From the sequence record NC_052653.1: a stretch of DNA of 64,000 nt. One strand, 5' to 3'. Position 1 is the first letter of the stretch; every line of letters begins with the position of its first letter. Positions 100 to 32,471 of this stretch are shown here, in pieces. Both the position numbers and the translations under genes were made by a program. The notes under the pieces are model-generated. The model had not been told where the DNA came from and did no database searches. It worked only from the letters and a program-made list of their open reading frames with translations. Source of the stretch: Escherichia phage vB_vPM_PD06.

Positions 100-140
100 G
101 ATTTCTTTGTGTTCACATAGCGCCCCCTGGAAGGTGGCGC
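100..140 (+). repeat. Inverted-orientation copy of the conserved box+hairpin element
   Basis: TTCACATAG box at 112-120 followed by GCGCC...GGCGC hairpin 120-140; same motif as the elements between leftward genes but reading on the + strand. Confidence 0.3.
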
Positions 141-1011
141 ATTATGATCATCAGGGTAATTATTCACTATGTTTATTATTGGATAGCTTATATTATAGCC
201 AATGTTCCAAACATTAGCTAATAATAACGCACCGCAACAATGTAAGGGAATACAATATACCATGTATATTGTTGCGCTTGCAATTGTTGCAAGCTACATA
301 AGCACAGATAATAACTATCGGTGATGGTTATTATGTGGGGTGTGTAGTTGCGTTATTATTAGCCGCCTATGTGTCCGGCATAGGCTGCTAATGATACGCT
401 TGCGAATTATATTTCTTGTTATAATTATTGTATGAAATGATTATTTAGGTAATAGATAGTAAGGTAAAGATTAGATCATAAATAGATAGGATATTAATTA
501 TTTAGTAATGTTACTAACAATTTAATAGTTACTTTGTGCAACAATTCGATAGATTATAGTTATAGTTTTAAAGGTTAGATAGATTATATTTAGCTTGGTA
601 ATGATTTATATTAGTTATTGTTGTTTAATATAAGGTTATCAATGAGATAATAACAGTAAGTTATAAATAAAAGTGAGATAATTAGCTTTAATTTAGTTAG
701 ATAGCTTATTATTTTATATGTTAGATGGCCTTAAGTTAAGAATGATTATCATTATTACATTATTCAGTTTATTGCATAAATAATCAGCTATAAATCAGAA
801 TGATTATTATTTAAGAGGAAAGAGAAGAAAAAGGCTGTTTTTGCCAGATAGTTGCATGAAGAAATTAAAAATAAGCGGTCTAAAACACGCTGTAAGCGCC
901 TTATGATCTTCATGGTATGGTTATTCATCTGCTCCTTGATTAGCTCGATACCGCGATCTATTCACTTTTTCGGTGAACGTTTTTGATAGGTAAAAGATAT
1001 CATCTTTATTG

Positions 1012-1042
1012 AGGTAAAAAGAAAGGGCGCTTATTGCGCCCT
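1012..1042 (-). terminator. Intrinsic terminator ending the leftward early-like array
   Basis: Hairpin AGGGCGC-TTATT-GCGCCCT at 1024-1042 with A-run on + (U-run on - strand) just downstream of the stop at 1058; identical hairpin recurs at 7470-7488. Confidence 0.5.
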
Positions 1043-1057
1043 TGTGTGAAATGTTAT

Positions 1058-1441
1058 TTACTTATAAGCCGGATCGTTTGTTATATCAAGCCAATGAGCT
1101 AAATTAATTTTATTTTTTGCTTTCATTTTCTCGATCAAACGTTCGGCTAATGTTTCTGAACGAATATAAACATAATCGCTAAAATCTTGCCCGGTTTCCT
1201 CGTCGATCATCTCGCGATATTCAATTTTCCCGATAAACGCATGATTCAGCGCATAAGTTTTACCCGTGTACCAGTTGTGCAAATGAATCTCACATTTATA
1301 ATCGTCGCTATAACCTTCGGTTGTTCTAACTTCAACCAAGTCACCTTTGAACACGGATAAGCACCACATAGGATCACGATCTACAGCGCCATTAAAATCT
1401 TTACCGTTTACAGTAGCCGCCAGGTTGATGATATTGCTCAT
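1058..1441 (-). CDS. Hypothetical protein (127 aa)
   Basis: Six-frame ORF; last gene of compact leftward array. Confidence 0.6.
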   Translation of the reverse strand: MSNIINLAATVNGKDFNGAVDRDPMWCLSVFKGDLVEVRTTEGYSDDYKCEIHLHNWYTGKTYALNHAFIGKIEYREMIDEETGQDFSDYVYIRSETLAERLIEKMKAKNKINLAHWLDITNDPAYK

Positions 1442-1474
1442 GGAGATTCCTCGTTTACCGTTTAAAATTGCTTG

Positions 1475-1501
1475 CCCTACACGATAACTATAAATTAACA
1501 G
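1475..1501 (-). repeat. Box-only copy of conserved intergenic element (no hairpin)
   Basis: CCCTACACGATAACTATAAATTAACAG resembles the box CCCTATGTGATAAACTATACCAG of the element at 8907-8947. Confidence 0.3.
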
Positions 1502-1516
1502 AGGCTATAAAGCAAG

Positions 1517-1825
1517 TTATTTTTCATAGAATTTTTCTACTGTGATATTCTTCCCGGTGGGATTAGCTACTTTCAAAATTTTATCATGTACTGGACGCCC
1601 AAAAGAATAAGATCCGTATACAGTAAACCAATAATCACCGTCAGGCTGTACTATCACCGCTGCATAAGGTACGCCTTTTTCGTTATTGCTGACAGAATAG
1701 ATCACATTGCCGTTAATAGCCTCAGCGCGTTTAATTTGTTCGATCATGATATGATTCCTATATTGAGCGGGAAACCACTTCCCGCCTACGTGATAAATAA
1801 TAGTGTAAGCGTGATCCGGTGTCAA
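1517..1825 (-). CDS. Hypothetical protein (102 aa)
   Basis: Six-frame ORF in leftward array. Confidence 0.6.
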   Translation of the reverse strand: MTPDHAYTIIYHVGGKWFPAQYRNHIMIEQIKRAEAINGNVIYSVSNNEKGVPYAAVIVQPDGDYWFTVYGSYSFGRPVHDKILKVANPTGKNITVEKFYEK

Positions 1826-1961
1826 TAGGTAGAATTGTAAAGATTTGATAGTTTATACCTTTGATGTTTTGTCGTTTGATAGGTATTAGCTATCAATATA
1901 TAGCGGGGTCTTCCGGTGATTACCTCCCCCCGTCACCAGGTGCCGCCCGTTCAATAAGCAT

Positions 1962-1990
1962 AACAAAAAACAGGACAAAAACAAGCCCTG
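1962..1990 (-). terminator. Putative intrinsic terminator (weak stem)
   Basis: CAGGAC...GCCCTG stem at 1971-1990 followed on - strand by T-run (plus-strand AACAAAAAA). Confidence 0.3.
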
Positions 1991-2001
1991 TTTTGTAAAG
2001 A

Positions 2002-2205
2002 TTAGATGATCTGCATATCCTCCATGATAATTTCTAATTTCCAAACAAGATGATCTAAGCTCCCTGATAAAAATGATTCCGATACATAACCGCCATCGGA
2101 CACCGTAGCAAGGATCTCGCCATTTGCTTGCTCTTTGATTTGAACATCCAGGCGGTTAGCCTTTGCTTTATTCAGGACGGCGATCAGGCGGTTAGCTGTA
2201 GTCAT
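2002..2205 (-). CDS. Hypothetical protein (67 aa)
   Basis: Six-frame ORF; box+hairpin element immediately upstream. Confidence 0.5.
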   Translation of the reverse strand: MTTANRLIAVLNKAKANRLDVQIKEQANGEILATVSDGGYVSESFLSGSLDHLVWKLEIIMEDMQII

Positions 2206-2227
2206 GGTGTTTTCCTTCCAGTTGTGA

Positions 2228-2264
2228 GCGGCACCATTGCCGCCCTACGTGATACATCTTACAC
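2228..2264 (-). repeat. Conserved box+hairpin intergenic element
   Basis: Hairpin GCGGCA-CCAT-TGCCGC then box CCTACGTGATACATCTTACACT; on - strand reads TAAGATGTATCACGTAGGGCGGCA. Confidence 0.6.
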
Positions 2265-2289
2265 TATCCGATACATTGTGCAAGCTATT

Positions 2290-2481
2290 TTAGATCTCGT
2301 CACCTATATAATCAGATCTATTCTTTTCTGTCATACGCTTAAGCAATTTTTGCATATGGCTTATGGCTTGCAATGTATCTTCTTCCAGGCTTGAATCGAG
2401 ATAATCAGGATCATTCTTTACCTTGCTATGATTGTGATACCGCAACGCTGCTAATACCTTTCTAACTTGTTCTGCATTCAT
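2290..2481 (-). CDS. Hypothetical protein (63 aa)
   Basis: Six-frame ORF in leftward array. Confidence 0.5.
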   Translation of the reverse strand: MNAEQVRKVLAALRYHNHSKVKNDPDYLDSSLEEDTLQAISHMQKLLKRMTEKNRSDYIGDEI

Positions 2482-2630
2482 TTTTATTACTCCTTAAAAC
2501 CAGGTGCCAACCGTTTCCAATAGGTCACTGACTACCAGGACAACATTAATCAGCACATATTCAACCAGGAAGGGAATAAGCGCCAGCGTTGCTACTACGA
2601 TCCCCATTGTGATGATTACCTTTCTCATGG

Positions 2631-2915
2631 TTAGCGGTTTACCTGGGCTTTACCGTTTACGGTCATCGGTATGGCCTCAAGGTCTGGATCTTCCTTAAGG
2701 TCGCGTGCAAGCTCACCGCACCGGACACCCTCGAATCCGTAGTACTCTGTTGTGCCGTCCTGGAAAGTTTTAGCGGCAAGGCATAGGCGATAATTAACGC
2801 CGATCCGGTTTATTGCGTTGATATCGGTTAGCGTGATGGATTCTGGCAACTCATTAGCCAGTACAGGCGCGTTAATACCAACAACCAGGGCAACTACTGC
2901 GATCATCTTTTTCAT
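2631..2915 (-). CDS. Hypothetical secreted protein (94 aa)
   Basis: N-terminus MKKMIAVVALVVGINAPVLA looks like a signal peptide. Confidence 0.6.
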   Translation of the reverse strand: MKKMIAVVALVVGINAPVLANELPESITLTDINAINRIGVNYRLCLAAKTFQDGTTEYYGFEGVRCGELARDLKEDPDLEAIPMTVNGKAQVNR

Positions 2916-2944
2916 GCGTCTATCCTCTTCCTATTGCGTTTAAT

Positions 2945-2960
2945 GGGGCGTTACCGCCCC
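2945..2960 (-). repeat. GC-rich intergenic hairpin (element family, hairpin only)
   Basis: GGGGCG-TTAC-CGCCCC. Confidence 0.45.
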
Positions 2961-2969
2961 GCTTATGGT

Positions 2970-3206
2970 TTATTGATTGATGTTATGATGAAAGTTATTT
3001 TCTTCAATAGCTTTTAAAATAAAAGCCGTGATCGCTTTCGTATCTACTTGTTCGAACGTATCAGAATAAGCCCAATAATAATCATCCCCTACTTTCGGCG
3101 GGTAAACCTGGACAAGGAGATCGCCACCTGGTTGATCTATAAGCTCAACATGCAAGCCGGATGATTCAGCGGTTTTAACGGCGTTTAATACTGTTGCAAT
3201 ACTCAT
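2970..3206 (-). CDS. Hypothetical protein (78 aa)
   Basis: Six-frame ORF. Confidence 0.55.
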   Translation of the reverse strand: MSIATVLNAVKTAESSGLHVELIDQPGGDLLVQVYPPKVGDDYYWAYSDTFEQVDTKAITAFILKAIEENNFHHNINQ

Positions 3207-3226
3207 AATCTTTTCCTTTCTGATGT

Positions 3227-3242
3227 GGGGCGTTGCCGCCCC
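3227..3242 (-). repeat. GC-rich intergenic hairpin (element family, hairpin only)
   Basis: GGGGCG-TTGC-CGCCCC. Confidence 0.45.
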
Positions 3243-3250
3243 TTTGTTGA

Positions 3251-3550
3251 TTAGATCGCTGTTTCCAGTAGTTCGGCTAACGTCTTACCGCCTGATAGTT
3301 GGTCTAACGTTTGCTCTTCTGGCAAGAAATTAGCTGATATTAAACCGACTTGATTCCCTTTGTGCCAGTTAGCCTGGCGGATGATTCCATCCTTTAAAGA
3401 TTTTACCGCCATTGTGCAACCGTCGCCAAATGATTCATTTTTATGATCCATTACTTCATAAGCGCCCAGCTTGCTGCTGTTAGGCACCATTAACGCGAAT
3501 ACATCACCAACAACCAGTTTTTCTACGGTAACAATAGCGATAGTTTCCAT
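3251..3550 (-). CDS. Hypothetical protein (99 aa)
   Basis: Six-frame ORF. Confidence 0.6.
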   Translation of the reverse strand: METIAIVTVEKLVVGDVFALMVPNSSKLGAYEVMDHKNESFGDGCTMAVKSLKDGIIRQANWHKGNQVGLISANFLPEEQTLDQLSGGKTLAELLETAI

Positions 3551-3568
3551 TTTACTTTCCTCATTATC

Positions 3569-3607
3569 GGCGGCACCATTGCCGCCCTACGTGGTAAATA
3601 TTAGCAC
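3569..3607 (-). repeat. Conserved box+hairpin intergenic element
   Basis: GGCGGCA-CCA-TTGCCGCC then CTACGTGGTAAATATTAGCAC. Confidence 0.6.
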
Positions 3608-3631
3608 ACTGGCGATCTGTGTCAATACTTT

Positions 3632-4018
3632 TTATTCAATATAAATCAAATTATCTTCACCAATGTAAGCCGACACGTTCGGCATAAACTTAGCTGCATT
3701 GGTTAGGCGGTTCGCCGTGTTAGTGGTGTATATTTCAGGGCGATCCCAAAAGCCTACGCCGTGACCGTTACGGGTAAAATGTAAATCATTCCCGATCTGG
3801 TTGGCTGTTGCGCCGTCGCTCATTGCCTCAGAGATAGCGGCAAGATTAGCATTAATAAAGGCTGTTACATCCTGGGCGATCCGTTCGTCCGCGCTAGGAG
3901 AAAAATCATAATCGTCTAAGTTTTCAATAAAATTACCTTCATGATCCCTTGCTGATTCAGCAAAAATAAAGGCTTCTTTATAACCGTTGATGATTTCAAT
4001 AATCATTTCTGTTTTCAT
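3632..4018 (-). CDS. Hypothetical protein (about 128 aa; start uncertain, track ORF extends to 4105)
   Basis: Internal ATG at 4018 (MKTEMIIEI) preferred because the longer N-terminal extension overlaps a separate small ORF. Confidence 0.5.
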   Translation of the reverse strand: MKTEMIIEIINGYKEAFIFAESARDHEGNFIENLDDYDFSPSADERIAQDVTAFINANLAAISEAMSDGATANQIGNDLHFTRNGHGVGFWDRPEIYTTNTANRLTNAAKFMPNVSAYIGEDNLIYIE

Positions 4019-4067
4019 GCTGTACGCTCGACAATAATAATAGTTTGCGGGATCTCGTTTTCTACTA

Positions 4068-4229
4068 CTAACAAGGCTTTTTCTGTGTGATAGATATTTT
4101 AACACGTTGTAAAGTAGCGGTAAAATCTTTCATTTCATTATGCGCGGATTTAGTACAATGCCAGATCTCAGGTTTACCAATTTGCAAGCCGCGTAAAAAT
4201 TCCGTTTTACCTGTCTTATTCGTGATCAT
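4068..4229 (-). CDS. Small hypothetical protein (53 aa; not in ORF track)
   Basis: ATG at 4229 preceded by AAGGTG RBS; hand translation MITNKTGKTEFLRGLQ... has no internal stop. Confidence 0.3.
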   Translation of the reverse strand: MITNKTGKTEFLRGLQIGKPEIWHCTKSAHNEMKDFTATLQRVKISITQKKPC

Positions 4230-4239
4230 TTGTTTCACC

Positions 4240-4344
4240 TTAGCCGATACCGTGGGAAGATAGGATCATATTAGCCATAGTTGCAACCATTCCAACCGAT
4301 AATGCCATGCCAACTACTACAACCGTGAAAATTTTTTCTAACAT
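4240..4344 (-). CDS. Small hydrophobic peptide (34 aa)
   Basis: Track ORF 4240-4440 overlaps the element; internal ATG at 4344 has GAGGATGG RBS; MLEKIFTVVVVGMALSVGMVATMANMILSSHGIG is one predicted TM helix. Confidence 0.35.
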   Translation of the reverse strand: MLEKIFTVVVVGMALSVGMVATMANMILSSHGIG

Positions 4345-4362
4345 GATTCCATCCTCATTAAT

Positions 4363-4406
4363 GGGCGTTGCCTTATTGCCCCGCCCTATGTCGTACACTT
4401 TACCAG
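4363..4406 (-). repeat. Conserved box+hairpin intergenic element
   Basis: GGGCG...CGCCC hairpin then CTATGTCGTACACTTTACCAG. Confidence 0.55.
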
Positions 4407-4507
4407 ATCCGCGCCTGGTGTCAACAATTATTTTGTACATTCTGAGATTGTCAAGGTTTTTGATAAAACAACAGAATTGAGAGTTTTTCCCATCTTCTGA
4501 TCCTCTG

Positions 4508-4771
4508 TTAGCATACGATAGCGATCACGCCGCCACAAATAAAAGGTAAATCAAAACGGTCTAACTTGCAAGCTATTTTTAAACGAAAGGCAACATAAAA
4601 GAAAAGTTGCAAACAATCGATCATTGTGTTAGCTGTTGAAACGCTGCCAGCATTAAACACCACCACGCCCACGGCGTTAAACGTTGCGTTACTCACGAAA
4701 GCGAAAAGGCAAGCGATCACGGTGGCGATCATAATGTTGCGTTTTGTCAATCTGTAAATGATGTTTTTCAT
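4508..4771 (-). CDS. Hypothetical membrane protein (87 aa)
   Basis: Six-frame ORF; hydrophobic segments. Confidence 0.55.
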   Translation of the reverse strand: MKNIIYRLTKRNIMIATVIACLFAFVSNATFNAVGVVVFNAGSVSTANTMIDCLQLFFYVAFRLKIACKLDRFDLPFICGGVIAIVC

Positions 4772-4782
4772 TCTGTCATGTT

Positions 4783-4820
4783 GGCGGCATCATTGCCGCC
4801 CTACGAAATACATTCTACCC
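4783..4820 (-). repeat. Conserved box+hairpin intergenic element
   Basis: GGCGGCA-TCA-TTGCCGCC then CTACGAAATACATTCTACCC. Confidence 0.6.
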
Positions 4821-4840
4821 GATTTATAATTGTTGTCAAA

Positions 4841-5110
4841 CTATTTTTTCAAGCTCGACCAGTCAAAACACGGGGCGATCTCGTTAAAACTTGTGCCCTG
4901 TAAAGCACATAATTTTTTAGCAATAGCCGCCGTAACCTGGCGCTGTACGCGCGGATCTGCTACTGATTGGAGAAAGTAGGCGGTTTTATATGTGATCATG
5001 CTTTCGCCTGTTTCCTTGTTAACGTGATGCACTATTTTAGCCTTATCATCTTTTACCAGGGTGTAACCGGATTCGATGGCCTTGATTGCAACGTCCAATG
5101 ATATTTTCAT
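4841..5110 (-). CDS. Hypothetical protein (89 aa)
   Basis: Six-frame ORF. Confidence 0.6.
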   Translation of the reverse strand: MKISLDVAIKAIESGYTLVKDDKAKIVHHVNKETGESMITYKTAYFLQSVADPRVQRQVTAAIAKKLCALQGTSFNEIAPCFDWSSLKK

Positions 5111-5129
5111 GATTTACCTCTTTATTGAC

Positions 5130-5150
5130 GGCGGGGAATACTCCCCCGCC
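5130..5150 (-). repeat. GC-rich intergenic hairpin (element family)
   Basis: GGCGGGG-AATACT-CCCCCGCC. Confidence 0.45.
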
Positions 5151-5157
5151 TCATTAA

Positions 5158-5328
5158 TTATTCTTCATCGTCGCCGTTATAGTATTCAATGCCATTTTCA
5201 TCGGTTACGGTGATGTTAACACCACCGATAGTAACACGATCACGGGCAAATGTCATGGCTTCATTTAAATCTTCAGACCAAAAAATATTGTGACCTTTGC
5301 GCGATACGTAAAACATAGTCGGGATCAT
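5158..5328 (-). CDS. Small hypothetical protein (56 aa; not in ORF track)
   Basis: Hand translation MIPTMFYVSRKGHNIFW...NGDDEE with no internal stop; ATG at 5328 after AAAAGAGAAACAAATC; fills an otherwise empty gap. Confidence 0.4.
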   Translation of the reverse strand: MIPTMFYVSRKGHNIFWSEDLNEAMTFARDRVTIGGVNITVTDENGIEYYNGDDEE

Positions 5329-5351
5329 GATTTGTTTCTCTTTTGTTGTGA

Positions 5352-5393
5352 GCGGGAAACCATTTCCCGCCCTATGTGGTAAACTTTACTACG
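5352..5393 (-). repeat. Conserved box+hairpin intergenic element
   Basis: GCGGGAAA-CCA-TTTCCCGC then CCTATGTGGTAAACTTTACTAC. Confidence 0.65.
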
Positions 5394-5412
5394 TTGTTTG
5401 CGTGCTGTCAAA

Positions 5413-5697
5413 TTATTTTTTAATGTTTTGCCCTACAAAATTGATCACTTCCTTAAGCTGTCTCTCTGTCATGATCGTACCTGGTAACTCTTCTTTAATT
5501 TCTTCCGGTAAATAGATATTACCGCGCCAGGTTAACAAACAACCGTTTTGATCTTCGCAGATAGAATAAGAAAACATCCACTCGCAATCATTTTCAAGCT
5601 CCCAAAAACACAAAAAGTCTTCTTTCCCTAAGTTTTCAACGGTTAAACATAATCCGCGACGTGCTGCATAATTAGTTAGGCTTTTTGTGATTTTCAT
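5413..5697 (-). CDS. Hypothetical protein (94 aa)
   Basis: Six-frame ORF. Confidence 0.6.
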   Translation of the reverse strand: MKITKSLTNYAARRGLCLTVENLGKEDFLCFWELENDCEWMFSYSICEDQNGCLLTWRGNIYLPEEIKEELPGTIMTERQLKEVINFVGQNIKK

Positions 5698-5718
5698 GAT
5701 TTTTCTCTCTTCTGTTAG

Positions 5719-5761
5719 GCGGGGAAACCATTTCCCCGCTCTATGAGATACAATATATTAC
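5719..5761 (-). repeat. Conserved box+hairpin intergenic element
   Basis: GCGGGGAAA-CCA-TTTCCCCGC then TCTATGAGATACAATATATTAC. Confidence 0.65.
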
Positions 5762-5780
5762 TTATCAGGTGTGCTGTCAA

Positions 5781-6104
5781 TCAATAATCTTTAAGATTTT
5801 CTACATTTACAAAAGGGCGTTTATTTTCTAAGTTTTCGCCGTACCATTGCCCCATGTTGATTTCTGCGGTGCGCAACCAGGACATGCCGCGTTCTATCTT
5901 TTTGCTCGCAATGTCGATCCGGCTTTTGCATAGTGCTTTCGCTTGCAATGTAAAAACACTATTGCCCTGTAATGCTTCCAGGTCATCATGTGCAAGGCGG
6001 TATTCTTTAAAGCCTGATTCTATCATTTCAATCGCATCAAGGAAACGCGCACGATGATAGAAAAAATCAGAGTTATCCAAATAAACACCGATCACAGATT
6101 TCAT
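5781..6104 (-). CDS. Hypothetical protein (107 aa; start moved to internal ATG)
   Basis: ATG at 6104 (MKSVIGVYL) preceded by AAAAGGG RBS. Confidence 0.55.
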   Translation of the reverse strand: MKSVIGVYLDNSDFFYHRARFLDAIEMIESGFKEYRLAHDDLEALQGNSVFTLQAKALCKSRIDIASKKIERGMSWLRTAEINMGQWYGENLENKRPFVNVENLKDY

Positions 6105-6204
6105 AATTTTACCCTTTTGTTTGCGGCCTTTGCCGTTTTCAAGATATAGTTTAAAGCATAACAAAAAATTATCAAGCCTTTAAAGCGTACAACTATAAAA
6201 CCTA

Positions 6205-6324
6205 TTAAAACACAATGTATAATAACATGGCTATAGTAGCAATACAACATAAAACCATGCTTGTTTTCCTTCCTTCCTCATATGCTGGATTTATTACGCT
6301 ATACTGTACGGGAATAATTTTCAT
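6205..6324 (-). CDS. Small membrane peptide (39 aa; not in ORF track)
   Basis: ATG at 6324 after TTAAGGAAACAGC RBS; hydrophobic C-terminus CCIATIAMLLYIVF. Confidence 0.35.
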   Translation of the reverse strand: MKIIPVQYSVINPAYEEGRKTSMVLCCIATIAMLLYIVF

Positions 6325-6333
6325 GCTGTTTCC

Positions 6334-6429
6334 TTAATGTCTTAAAACGTGGTTTACAATAGAAACAAGCATACAGAAGAAAAAAGATCCTGTCAATAAG
6401 ATACCGAAAAATAAATGTAAATAGGGCAT
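6334..6429 (-). CDS. Small membrane peptide (31 aa; not in ORF track)
   Basis: ATG at 6429 after TTTAAGGAGTAAAACC RBS; MPYLHLFFGILLTGSFFFCMLVSIVNHVLRH. Confidence 0.35.
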   Translation of the reverse strand: MPYLHLFFGILLTGSFFFCMLVSIVNHVLRH

Positions 6430-6433
6430 GGTT

Positions 6434-6736
6434 TTACTCCTTAAAAAAATCATTGACAATTAAACTGATAACGCCCAGCACCAGATCACCAGGTAGCGCC
6501 GCGCTTTCGTTGTTGCTTGTTTGCACTTCCTCACTAGTACCCGCATGATAGATCGCATGGTAAGCAATAGTATAATAACCTTTCGTTATTTCTTTAAGAT
6601 TAATGATTAGCACGTTATTTGTTTCATCTTGAAACAATTTAGCGGTGATAGTATTGTTTTCTTTTACACTATCGACTTTTATTGATGGATCATTTACACC
6701 AGAAAAAAGAAAAAACGTTTTAGCTATGCCGTTCAT
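6434..6736 (-). CDS. Hypothetical protein (100 aa)
   Basis: Six-frame ORF. Confidence 0.6.
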   Translation of the reverse strand: MNGIAKTFFLFSGVNDPSIKVDSVKENNTITAKLFQDETNNVLIINLKEITKGYYTIAYHAIYHAGTSEEVQTSNNESAALPGDLVLGVISLIVNDFFKE

Positions 6737-6783
6737 GTAGTTCTCCTTTGTTGGGTGTATCTTATAACGTGCTTTCTATATTG

Positions 6784-7185
6784 TCAACCTTTTATCTCGG
6801 TACATTTTGCTAGGGTATACGTTGCAAGTGCTGACACTAGTTTTTCATTGCTACGATCTGCGGCGGTGCTGTGTACCTTTTGAATACTTTTTAGCCACGG
6901 CGTAAAATTTTGAGTCGTTAGCACACTGGTAATAATTTCACATGGTACATCTTCATTTAAGCCATTAACAATAGATTTATCTATTTTTGCCGTTAATTGT
7001 GTAACAGCACCATAAGCGATCATGTGTGAATCCTCCATGATTTCATCGGGGATCGCGTTATTAATGATCATGACGTTTTCCATTGCATCAACGGCGCTTA
7101 ATTCTGCTACTGTGGAGGATATCGCCGCGCTAGATGTTCCAACCATGCCAAAAGAGATTAAACCAGCGATCAATAATTTTTTCAT
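6784..7185 (-). CDS. Hypothetical secreted protein (133 aa)
   Basis: Start MKKLLIAGLISFGMVGTSSAA (signal-peptide-like) with GAGG RBS. Confidence 0.6.
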   Translation of the reverse strand: MKKLLIAGLISFGMVGTSSAAISSTVAELSAVDAMENVMIINNAIPDEIMEDSHMIAYGAVTQLTAKIDKSIVNGLNEDVPCEIITSVLTTQNFTPWLKSIQKVHSTAADRSNEKLVSALATYTLAKCTEIKG

Positions 7186-7193
7186 TTCTTGCC

Positions 7194-7376
7194 TCATATA
7201 TGTTTTATTGAGATTATATTGTCACTATATACAACGTTTTTCAACGTGTCAATAAAAATTTTATTGCCTTCAATCCCCAGGATCACGCCGCTAGTTATGA
7301 AACCATATTGATCACGATATCGGGCGCATAACCTTTGTCCCTGGGCTAGTGCCTTGCTTATTTCGTCTAATTTCAT
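7194..7376 (-). CDS. Hypothetical protein (60 aa)
   Basis: ATG after ACAGGAGC RBS. Confidence 0.55.
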   Translation of the reverse strand: MKLDEISKALAQGQRLCARYRDQYGFITSGVILGIEGNKIFIDTLKNVVYSDNIISIKHI

Positions 7377-7465
7377 TTTTAAAGCTCCTGTAAAGCTGTC
7401 TAACGTGGTTTATAGGCTTATCCTGGCGTTACCCTTGCCTATAAGCAACAAGCCTCTATATAAGC

Positions 7466-7494
7466 TAAAAGGGCGCTTATTGCGCCCTTTTTGT
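7466..7494 (-). terminator. Intrinsic terminator (bidirectional in form)
   Basis: AGGGCGC-TTATT-GCGCCCT hairpin 7470-7488 flanked by A-run and T-run; same hairpin sequence as at 1024-1042. Confidence 0.5.
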
Positions 7495-7631
7495 TATTCG
7501 TTCCAGTATCTTTTGCTGCTGCGATCTCTTTTTGTTTTGTTCCGCTTATCGCCTTTCTTGGTGATCTCTTCGTTCCAATCTTTACGCGCTTTATTGCGGT
7601 TGAATTTTTCGATCTGCTGTGATGCGTTCAT
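7494..7631 (-). CDS. Small basic protein (45 aa; not in ORF track)
   Basis: ATG at 7631 after GAGAGGAAAAAC RBS; MNASQQIEKFNRNKARKDWNEEITKKGDKRNKTKRDRSSKRYWNE. Confidence 0.4.
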   Translation of the reverse strand: MNASQQIEKFNRNKARKDWNEEITKKGDKRNKTKRDRSSKRYWNE

Positions 7632-7645
7632 GTTTTTCCTCTCGA

Positions 7646-8005
7646 TTACGCTACGTTATGATATTTTGCCAAAGTTACGATCATGCTTGCAATATATAAC
7701 CAATAATTTTCCCGCTCACGGGTAACGGTTGTTTCTTTGCTTGTTTCTTTTATGTACTTCCATTCAATTAATAATTGATCGATCTCGTTATAATTAAAAG
7801 CGATATTGATATCTGACGGTAAACCTTGTAACCAGCTTTTAACAGCTTGTACCATATTGTTATTATAACGATCACGATTAGATTGATACCAGTATTCAGA
7901 GTTAAAACGGCGCATCAGTTCGGTGATTTTTTCTTTTTCGGTTGTAGTACCATCAAAAGAAATAGCCGACAAAATGTAAGTTTTAATTGCTTTTACTGAT
8001 TTCAT
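7646..8005 (-). CDS. Hypothetical protein (119 aa)
   Basis: Six-frame ORF. Confidence 0.6.
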   Translation of the reverse strand: MKSVKAIKTYILSAISFDGTTTEKEKITELMRRFNSEYWYQSNRDRYNNNMVQAVKSWLQGLPSDINIAFNYNEIDQLLIEWKYIKETSKETTVTRERENYWLYIASMIVTLAKYHNVA

Positions 8006-8025
8006 AATCTTATCTCTTTATTGAT

Positions 8026-8046
8026 GGCGGGAAACCATTTCCCGCC
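8026..8046 (-). repeat. GC-rich intergenic hairpin (element family)
   Basis: GGCGGGAAA-CCA-TTTCCCGCC, same hairpin as at 5352 and 8907. Confidence 0.55.
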
Positions 8047-8091
8047 GTTGTTGTTACTTTACTTATAAATGATGCTACTGTCAAGCGGATA

Positions 8092-8262
8092 TTATTTATT
8101 TTTTAACGTTAATGTTCCCAGCTTATCAGCGTGACGCAGACCAGGAAAGATCCATTTTCCTGATTCATCTTTCACCGGGGCTTTAAGCGTAGCGCCCAGG
8201 TTGGCGGCGTTAACTTTACGTGCAACGTTGCGAGCGGCTTCACGGGTGGCGAAAGTGATCAT
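8092..8262 (-). CDS. Small hypothetical protein (56 aa; not in ORF track)
   Basis: Hand translation MITFATREAARNVARKVNAANLGATLKAPVKDESGKWIFPGLRHADKLGTLTLKNK; RBS AAGAGAAGAGGAAA. Confidence 0.4.
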   Translation of the reverse strand: MITFATREAARNVARKVNAANLGATLKAPVKDESGKWIFPGLRHADKLGTLTLKNK

Positions 8263-8285
8263 GATGTTTCCTCTTCTCTTTGTTA

Positions 8286-8307
8286 GGCGGTGGGCTATTC
8301 CACCGCC
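8286..8307 (-). repeat. GC-rich intergenic hairpin (element family)
   Basis: GGCGGTGG-GCTATT-CCACCGCC; compensatory changes keep the stem. Confidence 0.5.
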
Positions 8308-8352
8308 TTAATGAATATAGTTTACTTTATTTTACCAGGTTTGCAAGTAGTT

Positions 8353-8568
8353 TTATGAAATAATTGTCAAAGTAAAATCATAATCTTTTGACAATTTATA
8401 TTGCACCTTGTTACCGTATATGTCACCTTTACGTAAAGATCCACGGATACCGATAACATCCTTCACGTCTTTTAAATTTTTCACGCCTGTAATGTCTTTG
8501 TTGAAATACTCGTCATCTGAAAATAAAACTTGACTTGCATTTTTTAACAGTGTGCGGATATTAGCCAT
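8353..8568 (-). CDS. Hypothetical protein (71 aa; start moved to internal ATG)
   Basis: Track ORF start overlaps the element; ATG at 8568 (MANIRTLLKN) has GAGAGAG RBS. Confidence 0.5.
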   Translation of the reverse strand: MANIRTLLKNASQVLFSDDEYFNKDITGVKNLKDVKDVIGIRGSLRKGDIYGNKVQYKLSKDYDFTLTIIS

Positions 8569-8588
8569 TTTGATAATCTCTCTCACTA

Positions 8589-8629
8589 GGGGCGGCACTA
8601 TTGCCGCCCTATGCATTACATTTTACTGA
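8589..8629 (-). repeat. Conserved box+hairpin intergenic element
   Basis: GGCGGCA-CTAT-TGCCGCC then CTATGCATTACATTTTACTGA. Confidence 0.6.
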
Positions 8630-8655
8630 TTTTAGTTATCTTGTCAATATTATTT

Positions 8656-8883
8656 TTAGTTTAATTGATCCAGGCACAACAAGCGATCAACATTTAGATC
8701 GGTTAGGCTAATCGTTGGCACCTGGTAGGATTCGATGTACTCAACGCTCGACCATTGCCCGAAATTAGCGACCGCCCAGCTATTCAAGGAAGAGTGAAGA
8801 TCATCGCCTTTCTTCTCGGTGATAACTGCTACTACCTGGGAGATTCCAACCGTACCGGATACGCGAACAATAACGATAGCCAT
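8656..8883 (-). CDS. Hypothetical protein (75 aa)
   Basis: Six-frame ORF. Confidence 0.6.
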   Translation of the reverse strand: MAIVIVRVSGTVGISQVVAVITEKKGDDLHSSLNSWAVANFGQWSSVEYIESYQVPTISLTDLNVDRLLCLDQLN

Positions 8884-8906
8884 AATGATAACCTTTCTTT
8901 GATTTG

Positions 8907-8947
8907 GCGGGAAACCATTTCCCGCCCTATGTGATAAACTATACCAG
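8907..8947 (-). repeat. Conserved box+hairpin intergenic element
   Basis: GGCGGGAAA-CCA-TTTCCCGCC then CTATGTGATAAACTATACCAG. Confidence 0.65.
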
Positions 8948-8974
8948 ATTAAAAAACGTTGTCAACTGTTTTTA

Positions 8975-9214
8975 TTACATTCCTACCATAGCGGCACGGA
9001 TTGCAGTTTTACTATACTTGAAACCATCAGGTGTATGAGTGATTCCGTCCTGTTTTAATCTGTAGCACATTAGATCCGCCGCTTTATCTTTATTGCCACA
9101 CTCATTTATTAAACCTACAGCGTATAAGTATAACGATTCATCGTTATTAATCCAAAGGCTTACATTCCAATGAGTTTTGTTTTTGTGACCGTTGTACATT
9201 TTAGATTTAGCCAT
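8975..9214 (-). CDS. Hypothetical protein (79 aa; start moved to internal ATG)
   Basis: ATG at 9214 (MAKSKMYNGHK); longer track ORF overlaps the element. Confidence 0.5.
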   Translation of the reverse strand: MAKSKMYNGHKNKTHWNVSLWINNDESLYLYAVGLINECGNKDKAADLMCYRLKQDGITHTPDGFKYSKTAIRAAMVGM

Positions 9215-9237
9215 GATGTTAATCTCTTTTTCAGTGA

Positions 9238-9278
9238 GGCGGGAACTATTCCCGCTCTCTATGTAATACATTTTACGC
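9238..9278 (-). repeat. Conserved box+hairpin intergenic element
   Basis: GCGGGA-ACTA-TTCCCGC then TCTCTATGTAATACATTTTACGC. Confidence 0.6.
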
Positions 9279-9303
9279 TTTTTATTCGTGCTGTCAATGC
9301 TTT

Positions 9304-9669
9304 TTATAAATCTTTTTTACGTTTAACATCGCTTGCATGACTGTATACAGCGATCCCATTATCACGGCAAAAACGGGAAAGATACGCGCCGCGTGAAAAC
9401 TCTTTACCTTCCATATTAACAACCTTGCTAAACTCTTCCAGGGCAACGGTATCAAAATGATCACCATAACCATATTGAAACGGAACGTTAACGACTTCAA
9501 TCAGTTTACCGCCGATCTCAACGTCAACCATCAAAGAGAAATAAGTATTACCATACGACTTTTGAAACCAGCGACGGGCGCTAATATGTACCGCTTCAAT
9601 GCTGGATAGCTCAATTTTAGCAGTGTTAGCCAGGGTAGCATAAGCAGAAACATTGATATTTTTAGCCAT
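9304..9669 (-). CDS. Hypothetical protein (121 aa)
   Basis: Six-frame ORF with consensus sigma70 promoter upstream. Confidence 0.65.
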   Translation of the reverse strand: MAKNINVSAYATLANTAKIELSSIEAVHISARRWFQKSYGNTYFSLMVDVEIGGKLIEVVNVPFQYGYGDHFDTVALEEFSKVVNMEGKEFSRGAYLSRFCRDNGIAVYSHASDVKRKKDL

Positions 9670-9706
9670 GATTTTATTCCTTAGTAACGCTTTAATTTAT
9701 ATAAGC

Positions 9707-9734
9707 ATTATAGCTTACTGATTTCAGGTGTCAA
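9707..9734 (-). promoter_or_regulatory. Consensus sigma70-type promoter (leftward)
   Basis: On - strand: TTGACA (9734-9729), 16-bp spacer, TATAAT (9712-9707). Confidence 0.6.
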
Positions 9735-9756
9735 GTGATTTTTTATTTCACTTTAT

Positions 9757-9792
9757 GGGGCGTTGCCCCGTTCTATGTGGTATATATTACGG
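9757..9792 (-). repeat. Conserved box+hairpin intergenic element
   Basis: GGGGC-GTT-GCCCC then GTTCTATGTGGTATATATTACGG; lies upstream of the sigma70 promoter, i.e. at the 3' side of the preceding gene. Confidence 0.55.
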
Positions 9793-9815
9793 TGCTTGTT
9801 TGCATATGTCAAGCC

Positions 9816-10370
9816 TTACACAATGCAATTTTCATAATTTTTTAAGGCTTGTCTTTTTTCCTCTTCCGTCGGCATGTATGGCTGGATCTCTTCCTCTTCC
9901 AGGGTAGGCATGATTTCTTCCTCTTCCTCCTGGTCGCCCTGGTCTTCCTCTTGCGCTATGGTAACAAGTTTATTGATCTTCTCCTGGGCTTTAATTAGTT
10001 TTGCATCTAGCACCATTTTAGCGGTGTTGTATACAGTCCATGCCATGCGCTTTTCTGCGTATGCCTTATCTAGTGCGGCTAATTTAGCGGGATACTCTTC
10101 CAACACCTTAAAAGCCGGATCAATGCTGTACAAGGGATTATTTTTAGCGTCATCGCTTGGATCTGCGGCGCTTGCAATGTCAGCGTTACCATTCGCCAGC
10201 CATCCAGGGCGAACGGATCTCGTCCTGGTGTTGCCGTTGCTCTTTGCCGCTCGATTTCCTATCTGCTCCCCGCTATACCCTACCATGTGATCGATCATGT
10301 CATCTGGTATTATGCGCGGATCATTTGCGTCATGCTTTACCCAGGACTGGATCACATATTCACGCCCCAT
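9816..10370 (-). CDS. Hypothetical acidic protein (184 aa)
   Basis: Six-frame ORF; Glu-rich C-terminal region. Confidence 0.65.
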   Translation of the reverse strand: MGREYVIQSWVKHDANDPRIIPDDMIDHMVGYSGEQIGNRAAKSNGNTRTRSVRPGWLANGNADIASAADPSDDAKNNPLYSIDPAFKVLEEYPAKLAALDKAYAEKRMAWTVYNTAKMVLDAKLIKAQEKINKLVTIAQEEDQGDQEEEEEIMPTLEEEEIQPYMPTEEEKRQALKNYENCIV

Positions 10371-10371
10371 G

Positions 10372-10632
10372 TTAGTTCGCCTCTTCTGTTAGTAGTTTAC
10401 ATACCTTAAACATGCTTGCCGCGTCTTTTGACGGTAGCCAGCCTATCCGATACACTCCAGGATCTGGATTAGTTACATCAGTCAGTTGCGCGTTACGATG
10501 ATTAAAAATAGTGTAACCGCCGCCAGCACGGGGATAAACATTATCTTTAAACCTGATAGCGTATCTCGCCAGGTCGAACGTTGTAGCATGTTCAAAAGCG
10601 ATCACATTATCAAAAACTTTTAGAAAAAACAA
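10372..10632 (-). CDS. Hypothetical protein (86 aa; TTG start)
   Basis: TTG start at 10632 preceded by GGGGAGGATAATC RBS. Confidence 0.55.
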   Translation of the reverse strand: MFFLKVFDNVIAFEHATTFDLARYAIRFKDNVYPRAGGGYTIFNHRNAQLTDVTNPDPGVYRIGWLPSKDAASMFKVCKLLTEEAN

Positions 10633-10668
10633 GATTATCCTCCCCAGCGTTTAAAGCCCGTTGCACGG

Positions 10669-10782
10669 TTATTTTTTAACTCTCGTTTTAGTCTCTTGCA
10701 ACGGTTTACAAGTGCAAACCGTGCCGGAGTCGTAACAGTAGCGCCGTTTTTGGTGTGGATACTCATTACATATTGTTTCATA
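10669..10782 (-). CDS. Small basic peptide (37 aa; not in ORF track; weak)
   Basis: ATG at 10782; MKQYVMSIHTKNGATVTTPARFALVNRCKRLKREVKK; weak RBS. Confidence 0.2.
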   Translation of the reverse strand, partial: YETICNEYPHQKRRYCYDSGTVCTCKPLQETKTRVKK

Positions 10783-10790
10783 AAGTTTTA

Positions 10791-10835
10791 CCCTATGTAA
10801 GCGGGAACAATTCCCGCTTTAAGATAGCTTATCAG
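10791..10835 (-). repeat. Variant box+hairpin element (hairpin splits the box)
   Basis: CCCTATGTAA + GCGGGAACAATTCCCGC + TTTAAGATAGCTTATCAG. Confidence 0.45.
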
Positions 10836-10859
10836 GTTTTAGTGCAATGTCAACCGTTT

Positions 10860-11222
10860 TTATTCGTAAATTTTACCGCTTTCTACCCATACCATAACAC
10901 GGCGCATGTTATCCCATGCATCTTGTCGCAGATTTAAGGCATGCAATTCTTCCGTGGTGCTCATACCTGGAACGGGCTTGCTATATGTTACAAAGAGATC
11001 GCCAGCATATTCATAAGCCAGGGTAAGATCACATTGAATCATCTTTTTAATCATAGCATCAAGCATCATATTAGCGGCATGTTGATCACGTTTCAGCGGT
11101 AACGTTGCGATCTGTGTGCGATAGCTTTCGATCCGTGCATCCACTGCATCACGCGAAAGGTTTTTCACGTCATCGCGGAAAGATACCAGATTAAACATGA
11201 TAGTATTGATTTGCTTGCTCAT
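10860..11222 (-). CDS. Hypothetical protein (120 aa; start moved to internal ATG)
   Basis: ATG at 11222 (MSKQINTIMFN) with AAGGG RBS; longer track ORF overlaps the element. Confidence 0.55.
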   Translation of the reverse strand: MSKQINTIMFNLVSFRDDVKNLSRDAVDARIESYRTQIATLPLKRDQHAANMMLDAMIKKMIQCDLTLAYEYAGDLFVTYSKPVPGMSTTEELHALNLRQDAWDNMRRVMVWVESGKIYE

Positions 11223-11244
11223 TGCATTACCCTTTTTTTGTTTT

Positions 11245-11287
11245 GGCGGGGAAGTATTCCGCCGCCCTATGTGATACATCTTATCAG
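11245..11287 (-). repeat. Conserved box+hairpin intergenic element
   Basis: GGCGGGG...CCGCC hairpin then CTATGTGATACATCTTATCAG. Confidence 0.6.
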
Positions 11288-11325
11288 TTTAAAAAACGTT
11301 GTCAAGAATATTTTTAAAAATAATT

Positions 11326-11607
11326 TTAGCTGTATGATCCGCACCGCTCGCAATAGTGATCATCGTCGTCATCTGCCACCTGGCTGATAAAATGATCTAC
11401 CTTTGTTTTTAGGTTATTGTAATTGTTTTCTACTTCCTTTAGTCGTTCCTGGTAGTATTCCAGGGCTTCAATATACGCCGCCTCTTCTGTTTTTTCACGC
11501 ATAGCTAAATTCATGCCGCGCGTATCATCATACAGCCAAAAGCCATCGGTGCACTCACTCATTGAAAGAGTAGGGCTTAACTCTTTATGACTAATTACCT
11601 TGCTCAT
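11326..11607 (-). CDS. Hypothetical protein (93 aa)
   Basis: Six-frame ORF; C-terminal CERCGSYS. Confidence 0.6.
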   Translation of the reverse strand: MSKVISHKELSPTLSMSECTDGFWLYDDTRGMNLAMREKTEEAAYIEALEYYQERLKEVENNYNNLKTKVDHFISQVADDDDDHYCERCGSYS

Positions 11608-11617
11608 AGTGTGCGCC

Positions 11618-11722
11618 TTATAGAATGATTGAAATAATAACTGACACTACAATCCAAAAGGGAACGGCAAGAATGATAGCGTTAATCGTTCCAACCGTCA
11701 AGCTATTCTCTTTCTTGATCAT
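11618..11722 (-). CDS. Small hydrophobic leader peptide (34 aa; not in ORF track)
   Basis: MIKKENSLTVGTINAIILAVPFWIVVSVIISIIL; first ORF downstream of the leftward sigma70 promoter. Confidence 0.3.
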   Translation of the reverse strand: MIKKENSLTVGTINAIILAVPFWIVVSVIISIIL

Positions 11723-11850
11723 CGTTATCAACCTTTTATAAGTAATGTTATTGTGACGGTGGATTGTGGAGATCCTCACCTTTGCCCGTCTTGCATTGCA
11801 CCCGCCTATTGTTTATTGTCGTTGTGCCTTGCCCCCCCTCGACAAGATGA

Positions 11851-11879
11851 ATACTACGCTACCAGGTGAGGAACGTCAA
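11851..11879 (-). promoter_or_regulatory. Sigma70-type promoter driving the leftward array
   Basis: On - strand: TTGACG (11879-11874), 17-bp spacer, TAGTAT (11856-11851). Confidence 0.5.
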
Positions 11880-11989
11880 CCATTTTTTTAATCTTTTTTC
11901 ATTTCTTTTTTGCTTGCTATATATGAAGGAAACGGCTATCATCTTTCTACCGCGCCAACCAGGGCGCACAACAAAGAAAGGGCGATACC

Positions 11990-12256
11990 ATGACAAATAC
12001 TCCTTTACATCTCATGTACTCACTGGGCTGGCAAGGCGGCACGGTGCACCAGGTAGCAAGCGCAACGGGCTTAAAGGTTGAAACCGTTCTCAACCTGGGC
12101 GATCATAAGGTGGAAGAGATAGATCATTTTGATACGTTCGCAAATGGTTATCTATGGGCTTGCAGTGGCGGCGGGGAAAGCAAGATCCCACCAGGGGCGC
12201 GGGGCGACATGTATTTTTGGTTAGGTGTCCTATCCTGGCAAGAAAACAAAAAATAA
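11990..12256 (+). CDS. Possible small protein (88 aa), uncertain
   Basis: Six-frame ORF in the divergent control region; weak RBS; overlapping alternative frames. Confidence 0.2.
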   Translation: MTNTPLHLMYSLGWQGGTVHQVASATGLKVETVLNLGDHKVEEIDHFDTFANGYLWACSGGGESKIPPGARGDMYFWLGVLSWQENKK

Positions 12257-12258
12257 TC

Positions 12259-12287
12259 TTGACAAGCCCAGGGATCGGGCTTATACT
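12259..12287 (+). promoter_or_regulatory. Consensus sigma70-type promoter (rightward) with no obvious ORF downstream
   Basis: TTGACA (12259-12264), 17-bp spacer AGCCCAGGGATCGGGCT, TATACT (12282-12287). Confidence 0.55.
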
Positions 12288-32465: not shown

Positions 32466-32471
32466 GTGATA

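Follow-up and report, generated by a model that had tools for sequence, protein, structure and literature searches.

The closest described counterparts of the elements reported here are the promoter-early stem-loops (PeSLs) of the T4-like phages RB49/phi1, PST/T4, and nt-1/KVP40, in which a sigma-70 promoter and a G/C stem-loop stand ahead of ORFans in hyperplastic regions (Arbiol et al., 2010, PMC2839356; Comeau et al., 2014, PMC4122927). PeSLs mediate modular shuffling, and their stem-loop terminates transcription (PMC2839356; PMC4122927). Most commonly, the stem-loop is positioned between the -35 and -10 hexamers or over the -10 hexamer (PMC2839356). The same authors saw no evidence for such plasticity in other viruses (PMC2839356; PMC4122927). 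Here we analyzed a 64,000-nucleotide (nt) stretch of Escherichia phage vB_vPM_PD06 (NC_052653.1), hereafter the window, in which a family of composite promoter and hairpin elements is interspersed among the small leftward genes at 1.4-11.9 kb. A preliminary description of this DNA had listed at least 18 conserved elements of a box and a hairpin between these genes. We propose, with a probability of about 0.7, that the elements head early cassettes transcribed by the host polymerase, that the hairpin lies at the start of the messenger RNA (mRNA), and that the repeats double as recombination linkers.

We assign the window to a phi92-like myovirus of the Justusliebigvirus type. Region 1400-11400 is 93-96% identical to phi92-like myoviruses (Stephanstirmvirinae, mostly Justusliebigvirus), and only 68-85% of the region is shared with each relative, split into 4-9 pieces. 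About 34 small open reading frames (ORFs) of a program-made list reside on the minus strand at 1.0-11.7 kb, and all array ORFs tested belong to PHROGs of unknown function. Their homologues in phi92 are gp225-gp248, oriented toward the right terminal repeat. The GenBank record of phi92 annotates the homologous region with coding sequences and ribosome-binding sites only, marking neither promoters nor hairpins.

A complete element consists of an A-rich tract, TTGACA, a 16-17-nt spacer, TAnnnT, 9-12 nt with the motif (g/t)TAyCACATAG, and a GC hairpin whose stem has 5-11 bp and whose loop varies, followed by 17-22 nt including a Shine-Dalgarno sequence and then the ATG. From -35 hexamer to ATG, such a cassette spans about 95 nt. 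Counting by an exact hairpin scan, a scan for promoter plus hairpin, and a geometry table, we found 15 copies with promoter and hairpin, three with the hairpin only, and two decayed or broken ones on the minus strand at 1.4-11.9 kb, in agreement with the number and coordinates given in the preliminary description. The -35 hexamers of the 15 copies start at 11305, 10853, 9812, 9297, 8965, 8647, 8346, 8084, 5780, 5411, 4839, 4424, 3625, 2283, and 1825. Two more copies are found on the plus strand at about 89-140 and at 35568-35626. When genes are called from the ORF list, 22 intergenic gaps have a length of 44 nt or more, and 19 of them contain a copy. As described earlier, the copies belong to one family.

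The distance between the -35 and -10 hexamers is 16-17 nt in every promoter-bearing copy, TTGACA is exact in 13 of the 15, and A-rich 8-mers are located upstream of the -35 hexamers. The pattern TTGACA-N16/17-TANNNT occurs 24 times in the window versus 2.49 ± 1.77 times in shuffled sequences, with 17 of the 24 matches on the minus strand at 1797-11305. The other sigma-70-like promoters of the window are without a hairpin. In phage rV5, the homologous sites are sigma-70 promoters with the same -35/-10 consensus (Kropinski et al., 2013, PMC3606486, Table S4). We predict with very high confidence that the elements are strong host-type (sigma-70) early promoters. The 23-nt box of the preliminary description, CTGGTAAAATGTATCACATAGGG, turned out to be the extended -10 region plus 10-11 nt 3' of it. 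The earlier interpretation is supported in part. The box is only the downstream half of a sigma-70 promoter whose TTGACA hexamers had been overlooked, as had the copy at 35568-35626 (+).

The box had previously been likened to the promoters of single-subunit, T7-like phage RNA polymerases, with the hairpin at the 5′ end of the transcript. There is a superficial likeness between ...CACATAGGG of the box and ...CACTATAGGG of T7, and the copies are regularly placed ahead of genes. However, each box contains a -10 hexamer 16-17 nt downstream of a consensus -35 hexamer, and the conserved stretch comprises this -10 hexamer plus 10-11 nt, not a promoter of ~23 bp independent of the -35/-10 hexamers. 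We also searched for a phage RNA polymerase, as the preliminary description had advised, in the closely related Campylobacter phage A145, which has a complete genome of 146 kb that is 94-98% identical to the window. None of the ten ORFs of at least 550 residues in A145 has an RNA polymerase domain. They include a family A DNA polymerase, a UvrD-like helicase with an intein, a ribonucleotide reductase, a primase-helicase, an NAPRTase-family protein, and tail proteins, and two are without a Pfam match. Likewise, the promoters that the rV5 study reports for the homologous region are all of the sigma-70 type, and it names no phage polymerase (Kropinski et al., 2013, PMC3606486). As no phage RNA polymerase is found among the ORFs of this size in the complete relative, we reject a T7-like promoter as extremely improbable.

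The folding energies of the hairpins range from -8 to -19 kcal/mol, and dinucleotide shuffles as the reference give z-scores of -2.1 to -6.3. Among 26 distinct stems from the window and seven relatives, 200 of the 213 pair cells are Watson-Crick pairs, 10 are G·U, none is A·C, and three are others. The paired fraction amounts to 98.6%, compared with 68% when the arms are re-dealt among the copies. A model-fitted alignment of 86 matches (54 distinct), which leans toward the model, showed 98.5% of the cells paired, three of the nine pairs altered on both sides (25 cells), and a covariation score of 0.225 versus 0.131 for shuffled alignments, a value reached by none of 500 shuffles. Sliding the register on this alignment lowers the paired fraction to 42-77%. 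The compensatory changes claimed for the stems are therefore supported. Alignment A6 contains 29 G·U cells. The presence of G·U pairs, together with the complete lack of A·C pairs, points to the sense strand as the folding strand, and selection on the sense-strand fold is very likely. The loops have 3-6 nt and at least nine sequences (TGG, ATAG, ATGA, TAG, TTG, GTA, GCAA, AAC, and AATAGC). Because loops and stem lengths vary, a generic structural role is more plausible than binding of a sequence-specific protein.

To build a covariance model, as had also been recommended, we used as seeds 14 copies whose stems have 9 bp and whose loops have 3 nt, restricted to this one geometry because a MAFFT alignment placed the 3′ arms out of register. 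The model is biased to the GGCGGGAAA class and recovers neither the hairpin-only copies with GGGGCG nor the one near position 100. Run over the whole window with filters off, it gave sense-strand matches with E<0.1 only at 1763-11280 (-) and 35593-35630 (+), all other matches being antisense readings of the same hairpins or weak (E>0.1). The matches are thus confined to the array and the copy on the plus strand outside it. Rfam gave no match with E≤1 on either strand of 1-13000. The copy near position 100, said to be reversed, does exist at 89-140 (+), yet it lacks a good -10 hexamer and does not reach E<10 with the model; it is conserved in relatives.

The GC-rich, stable, and intergenic hairpins could be mainly terminators or attenuators acting on transcription from upstream cassettes, thereby isolating each cassette. 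A PeSL stem-loop lowered lacZ as much as rrnB T1 (Arbiol et al., 2010, PMC2839356), and the three promoter-less copies directly follow stop codons. However, the 8 nt past each hairpin are A-rich and none of the copies has a U-tract, as remarked earlier, and they thus lack a feature of canonical intrinsic terminators. The array also holds three canonical terminators with T-runs, and the terminator scan of the array sense strand found only these (7491-7467, 1043-1023, and 1994-1967), picking up none of the elements. The phage thus does use canonical terminators where termination is needed. Moreover, a hairpin downstream of a promoter would attenuate the transcript of its own cassette, and a terminator would not need the constrained distance to the -10 hexamer. 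We therefore consider termination as the main function rather unlikely.

The first paired base follows the -10 hexamer by 9-12 nt in 13 of the 15 copies, in keeping with the earlier suggestion that the hairpin lies at the predicted 5′ end of the transcript. The ATG follows the hairpin by 17-22 nt in most copies and by similar distances (19, 20, and 29 nt) in the hairpin-only ones. In E. coli, transcription starts about 7 nt past the -10 hexamer, at a purine preceded by a pyrimidine. From this rule we infer a start at an A of CACATAG, about 7-8 nt past the -10 hexamer, which would leave 2-5 unpaired bases ahead of the stem. E. coli mRNAs are stabilized by stem-loops at the 5′ terminus that leave about four or fewer bases unpaired, as exemplified by the ompA 5′ untranslated region (UTR) and the T7 phi10 leader.

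We propose the following mechanism. The A-rich, UP-like tract and the consensus sigma-70 promoter, often with an extended TG, would recruit the unmodified host RNA polymerase. The RNA would begin with the 2-5 unpaired bases and the stable GC hairpin, followed by a short A-rich leader with the Shine-Dalgarno sequence and by the start codon 17-22 nt on. The hairpin would act in the RNA by blocking 5′-end-dependent decay, i.e., RppH and the entry or scanning of RNase E. Protection of the 5′ end as its main role has, in our estimate, an even chance. In read-through transcripts and at promoter-less copies, it would stand between cistrons as a barrier against exonucleases or scanning RNase E and so insulate the individual small genes. 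At the DNA level, the near-identical repeats of 35-90 bp ahead of nearly every gene would provide homology patches at which single-gene cassettes are inserted, deleted, and replaced among related phages.

The hairpins may also have a 3′-stabilizing role in read-through transcripts. The preliminary description had supported a 3′-end role with the copy at 9757-9792, upstream of a consensus sigma-70 promoter. This argument is weak, as the copy (e9812) has -35/-10 hexamers of its own (9812-9784), and relatives have retained it in tandem with the promoter at 9734-9707. Because of this conservation, we also rejected a deletion in this genome as the origin of the tandem. T4 Srd stimulates RNase E, and rV5 gp11 has been called Srd-like. 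We dropped an Srd link as a reason for 5′ protection, since a tblastn search with rV5 gp11 found no homologue in the window or the complete relative. The hairpins had alternatively been regarded as RNase III-type sites cutting a polycistronic early RNA, as in the T7 early mRNA, and their intercistronic location and conserved structure would be compatible with such processing. RNase III substrates, however, need a helix of about 20 bp, roughly two helical turns, whereas the stems have only 5-11 bp, and most copies have their own promoter and would need no processing to yield monocistronic RNAs. RNase III processing is thus highly unlikely.

The motif (g/t)TAyCACATAG and the outer GGCGG/CCGCC pairs are far more conserved than the spacer between the -35 and -10 hexamers, and a linear box followed by a hairpin resembles boxA/boxB. 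The box and hairpin could accordingly be recognized by a regulator, either as an operator for early shut-off or as a nut/boxB-like RNA site. Unlike the lambda nut site (boxA/boxB) with its conserved loop bound by an N-like protein, the present hairpins have at least nine loop sequences, and loop length and stem length vary freely as well. Some copies, such as e8084, are without the box, and no candidate binding protein was identified. Furthermore, the box is not retained in rV5 (Vequintavirinae), while the hairpin position is kept. Its promoters P194, P185, P174, and P168 carry a GC hairpin 10-11 nt past the -10 hexamer, e.g., TTGACA-16-TAAACT-agacacaaaa-GGCGGGAA/tgt/TTCCCGCC with a diverged box. 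Retention of the position with divergence of the box suggests a constraint relative to the transcription start, and we consider a regulator site improbable.

A 46-nt query of box and hairpin was found in 134 phage records, mostly of Escherichia phages. Those with taxonomy belong to Stephanstirmvirinae, besides a few Klebsiella or Enterobacter phages of 150 kb. Among the 40 records listed, 37 are unannotated or have no annotated feature at the site. In A145, the covariance model matches only in the homologous array and at the site equivalent to 35568-35626 of the window. A looser scan for promoter plus hairpin adds one unrelated candidate at about 89.9 kb.

BLAST comparison of the window array with six relatives revealed 57 homology end-points, of which 23 are internal to an element and 39 are no farther than 25 nt from one, while elements ±25 nt make up 19% of the region as the expected share. 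Insertion, deletion, and replacement junctions between close relatives thus fall at the elements, as they do in PeSLs. In Serratia phage KKP_3264, an extra gene for 63 residues lies between two copies of CGTAGGGCGGCAATGGTGCCGC, the box and hairpin of e3625. Phage inny has an extra one-gene cassette at e9297, and phage Nernie has one at e8345. At 11838-11828, the match to the relatives extends to the left arm of a hairpin, beyond which the sequence becomes a cassette specific to the window. Across eight arrays, two hairpin alleles are seen repeatedly in non-orthologous places, with 24 and 20 occurrences.

The box and hairpin might even constitute a strand-specific, structure-recognized recombination signal similar to attC, by which single-gene cassettes are excised and inserted, possibly as mini-circles; the phage recombination machinery or a dedicated enzyme could use such a signal. 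The strand asymmetry of the wobble pairs, the junction inside a hairpin, the loop inversions (see below), and a small gene common to rV5-like and RB49-like phages with homology from the ATG are all compatible with this idea, and none of them requires it. We regard it as quite improbable. If true, the array would be an integron-like gene-capture system in a virulent phage.

Several points weigh against our account of host-polymerase cassettes with an mRNA-terminal hairpin and recombining repeats. The transcription start, and hence the distance of the hairpin from the 5′ end, is a prediction, and the hairpin begins 6 nt past the -10 hexamer in e10855 and 14 nt past it in e9812. Three copies lack a promoter, and a purely 5′-terminal role can therefore not cover all copies. 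The asymmetry of the wobble pairs would also fit folding of the same DNA strand instead of RNA. The stem-loops of the RB49/phi1 PeSLs terminate transcription, and the hairpins here may have a similar attenuator role. The strong conservation of (g/t)TAyCACATAG within Stephanstirmvirinae exceeds the needs of start-site selection alone. Lastly, the elements fill most of the intergenic space, and the enrichment of junctions is consequently not independent of a preference for intergenic sites.

The individual copies are described here from the head of the array, all on the minus strand, with spacer lengths given between the hexamers and slashes enclosing the loops. The broken copy at 11828-11879 has TTGACG-17-TAGTAT and the left arm only (GGGGGGGCA). 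Cassette e11305 (11245-11305) reads TTGACA (11305-11300)-16-TAAGAT (11283-11278)-gtatcacatag, followed by the hairpin GGCGGCGGA/atac/TTCCCCGCC (11266-11245) and, 22 nt further downstream, an ATG. In e10855 (10799-10853), TTGACA-16-TAAGCT precedes the hairpin AAGCGGGAA/ttg/TTCCCGCTT, and a ACATAGGG box lies 3' of the hairpin. Cassette e9812 (9757-9812), TTGACA-17-TAATAT-ataccacatagaac-GGGGC/aac/GCCCC, has the weakest hairpin (z -2.07); directly downstream, the hairpin-less tandem promoter at 9707-9734 is the sigma-70 consensus TTGACA-16-TATAAT. Next come e9297 (9237-9297), TTGACA-16-TAAAAT-gtattacataga-GAGCGGGAA/tag/TTCCCGCCT, and e8965 (8906-8965), TTGACA-16-TATAGT-ttatcacatag-GGCGGGAAA/tgg/TTTCCCGCC, with the commonest hairpin allele. 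Cassettes e8647 (8590-8647) and e8345 (8285-8346) read TTGACA-16-TAAAAT-gtaatgcata-GGGCGGCA/atag/TGCCGCCC and TTGCAA-16-TAAACT-atattcatta-AGGCGGTGG/aatagc/CCACCGCCT. In e8084 (8026-8084), TTGACA-17-TAAAGT-aacaacaac-GGCGGGAAA/tgg/TTTCCCGCC, the box has diverged and the hairpin position is retained.

Farther along the array, e5780 (5719-5780) is TTGACA-17-TATATT-gtatctcataga-GCGGGGAAA/tgg/TTTCCCCGC, and e5411 (5350-5411) is TTGACA-17-TAAAGT-ttaccacata-GGGCGGGAAA/tgg/TTTCCCGCTC with one G·U pair. The hairpin-only copy at 5130-5150, GGCGGGGGA/gta/TTCCCCGCC, is situated 7 nt past the preceding stop codon and 19 nt ahead of the ATG. Cassette e4839 (4783-4839) is TTGACA-16-TAGAAT-gtatttcgtag-GGCGGCA/atga/TGCCGCC. 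In e4424 (4363-4424), TTGACA-16-TAAAGT-gtacgacata is followed by an interrupted hairpin, GGGCG..GC/aauaag/GC..CGCCC. Cassette e3625 (3569-3625) has TTGACA-16-TAATAT-ttaccacgtag-GGCGGCA/atgg/TGCCGCC. Two further hairpin-only copies are GGGGCG/gcaa/CGCCCC at 3227-3242, 20 nt ahead of an ATG, and GGGGCG/gtaa/CGCCCC at 2945-2960, 29 nt ahead of an ATG. The last cassettes are e2285 (2227-2283), TTGCAC-16-TAAGAT-gtatcacgtag-GGCGGCA/atgg/TGCCGCT, and e1825 (1766-1825), TTGACA-17-TATTAT-ttatcacgta-GGCGGGAAG/tgg/TTTCCCGCT with two G·U pairs. The decayed copy at 1478-1515, TTGCTT...TATAGT-tatcgtgtag-GGCAAGC, has lost its hairpin. Among the canonical intrinsic terminators on this strand, the one within the array at 7467-7491 is AAAAGGGCGCAATAAGCGCCCTTTT with a T-run, the one at the array end (1023-1043) has the same stem followed by TCTTTTT, and the third at 1967-1994 is AAAACAGGGC...GTCCTGTTTT followed by TTG.

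On the plus strand, the relative in the opposite orientation (89-140) consists of TTGACA (89-94)-17-TTCACATA (112-119) and the hairpin GCGCCCCCT/gga/AGGTGGCGC (120-140). It faces into 150-1000, an AT-rich region with a GC content of 27-33% in which no ORF is convincing. Several inverted repeats and dispersed copies of (T)TAGATAG(A/C)TTAT occur there. The end of the early array flanks this region on one side and, in phi92, the right terminal repeat does so on the other; the region may be an origin or a packaging or terminus region. The copy outside the array (35568-35626), TTGACT-16-TATAGT-atacgacatata-GCGGAGGA/ttg/TCCTCCGC, is located upstream of the gene for a TerC-family integral membrane protein (35645-36622), which follows a Macro-domain protein gene within 34372-36646. 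With its own cassette of promoter and hairpin and a terminator-like GC hairpin (AAGCCCCCGAAGGGGCTT, 36629-36646) right after the stop codon, the TerC gene looks like a self-contained accessory gene module.

Within the array, segment 11286-11830 is found only in the window and is absent from all seven relatives compared. It carries an ORF of 93 residues (11326-11607) and a small ORF (about 11618-11722), and is bounded by e11305 on one side and by half a hairpin on the other. The tightly packed genes of the sub-block at 5781-7400 (-), just downstream of the canonical terminator at 7491-7467, have sigma-70-like promoters without a GC hairpin (7252, 6787, 6396, and 6175). Its ORF of 137 residues has the homologue gp239, with a predicted signal peptide in the phi92 record. 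The sub-block appears to be a module with a different origin. Between the terminator at 1994-1967 and e1825, a gap of about 140 nt without a plausible gene (1830-1966, -) holds a GC-rich self-complementary stretch, GGGCGGCACCTGGTGACGGGGGGAGGTAATCACCGGAAGACCCCGC, where Rfam gave no match. Outside the array, 13624-16019 (-) encodes a protein of 397 residues with CapR homology and a T5orf172 domain, as well as an AAA/STAND-like NTPase of 375 residues, beside a divergent promoter region.

The perfectly palindromic hairpin AAGCGGGAA/nnn/TTCCCGCTT (10799-10819) has the loop TTG in the window and TAG in three relatives, whereas the same palindrome in A145 (45174-45211) has CTA, the reverse complement of TAG. 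The palindrome is also found at 11223-11260 of a relative locus (L002). At the DNA level, the loop inversion bears the signature of template switching or cruciform processing. In a separate observation, rV5 ORF205 (63 residues, 11792-11983 of its locus) shares 89% protein identity with phi1 ORF260 (3501-3692 of its locus), and the DNA homology of 84.5% over 200 nt begins at the start codon. The same small gene thus stands behind a different resident promoter cassette in each phage family, which suggests a recent exchange of small genes between unrelated myovirus families. As for A145, its regions 4283-7831 and 31375-34149 correspond roughly to 49.4-53 kb and 23.6-26.4 kb of the window, and its UvrD-like helicase contains intein/Hint domains. 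At 1182 residues, the ORF for the family A DNA polymerase is unusually long, and its polymerase match is only partial, which suggests an insertion in this ORF. The homology between the window and A145 is interrupted at 51217-52116, in the polymerase region.

The cassettes extend the PeSL idea beyond T4-like phages, to phi92-like and rV5-like coliphages that are widely isolated for therapy. They offer a testable account of a block of about 10 kb of small early genes, with one strong host promoter per gene plus a 5′ hairpin, and suggest why isolates with 94-98% identity elsewhere differ in the gene content of this block. The cassette could also serve as a compact natural expression part, and the effect of its hairpin on mRNA half-life is directly measurable. 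For annotation, the sites are unmarked in dozens of public genomes. The literature that we searched on PeSLs, phi92, Phapecoctavirus, Justusliebigvirus, and rV5 contained no account of the elements and no transcriptome of these phages; the phi92 genome paper (Schwarzer et al., 2012) was outside the search. The rV5 study gives the promoter hexamers only, whereas the hairpin, the box, and a link to cassette shuffling are absent from its text and tables (PMC3606486).

Among other known systems, the ompA 5′ UTR and the T7 phi10 leader used in pET vectors share with the elements a stable hairpin a few nt from the predicted 5′ end and upstream of the ribosome-binding site. They are, however, single and experimentally proven cases, while here the family is repeated, the role is inferred, and three copies are internal to transcripts. 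Morons, which Hendrix and colleagues are said to have described in 2000, and integron cassettes are likewise single genes with their own expression or recombination signals, in arrays varying between relatives. Morons are without conserved flanking repeats, and integron attC sites have defined R/L boxes and extrahelical bases and depend on an integrase, none of which we saw here.

PeSLs are the most similar. The two families share an AT-rich tract, a sigma-70 promoter, a GC stem-loop, a Shine-Dalgarno sequence, and a start codon ahead of small ORFans in a hyperplastic early region, as well as the junctions between close relatives at the elements. The consensus promoters (TTGACA in 13 of 15, 16-17 nt, TAnnnT), predicted in our case, and the stable, G/C-rich, covarying stem-loop adjacent to them (-8 to -19 kcal/mol) are common features, too. 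The fifth PeSL subclass, with the stem-loop downstream of the -10 hexamer and before the start site, comes closest to the hairpin position found here. The differences lie in the lineage, which is Stephanstirmvirinae and, more loosely, Vequintavirinae instead of T4-like Straboviridae, in the conserved start-site box of the phi92-like elements, and in the layout. The phi1 stem-loops lie between the -35 and -10 hexamers or over the latter, whereas those described here typically lie 9-12 nt past it and would thus be transcribed into the mRNA of their own cassette. In addition, covariance model R1 gave no match in the hyperplastic-region locus of phi1. Considering the different phage lineage, the lack of an R1 match, and the different layout in phi1, we regard the elements as analogous, not homologous, to PeSLs.

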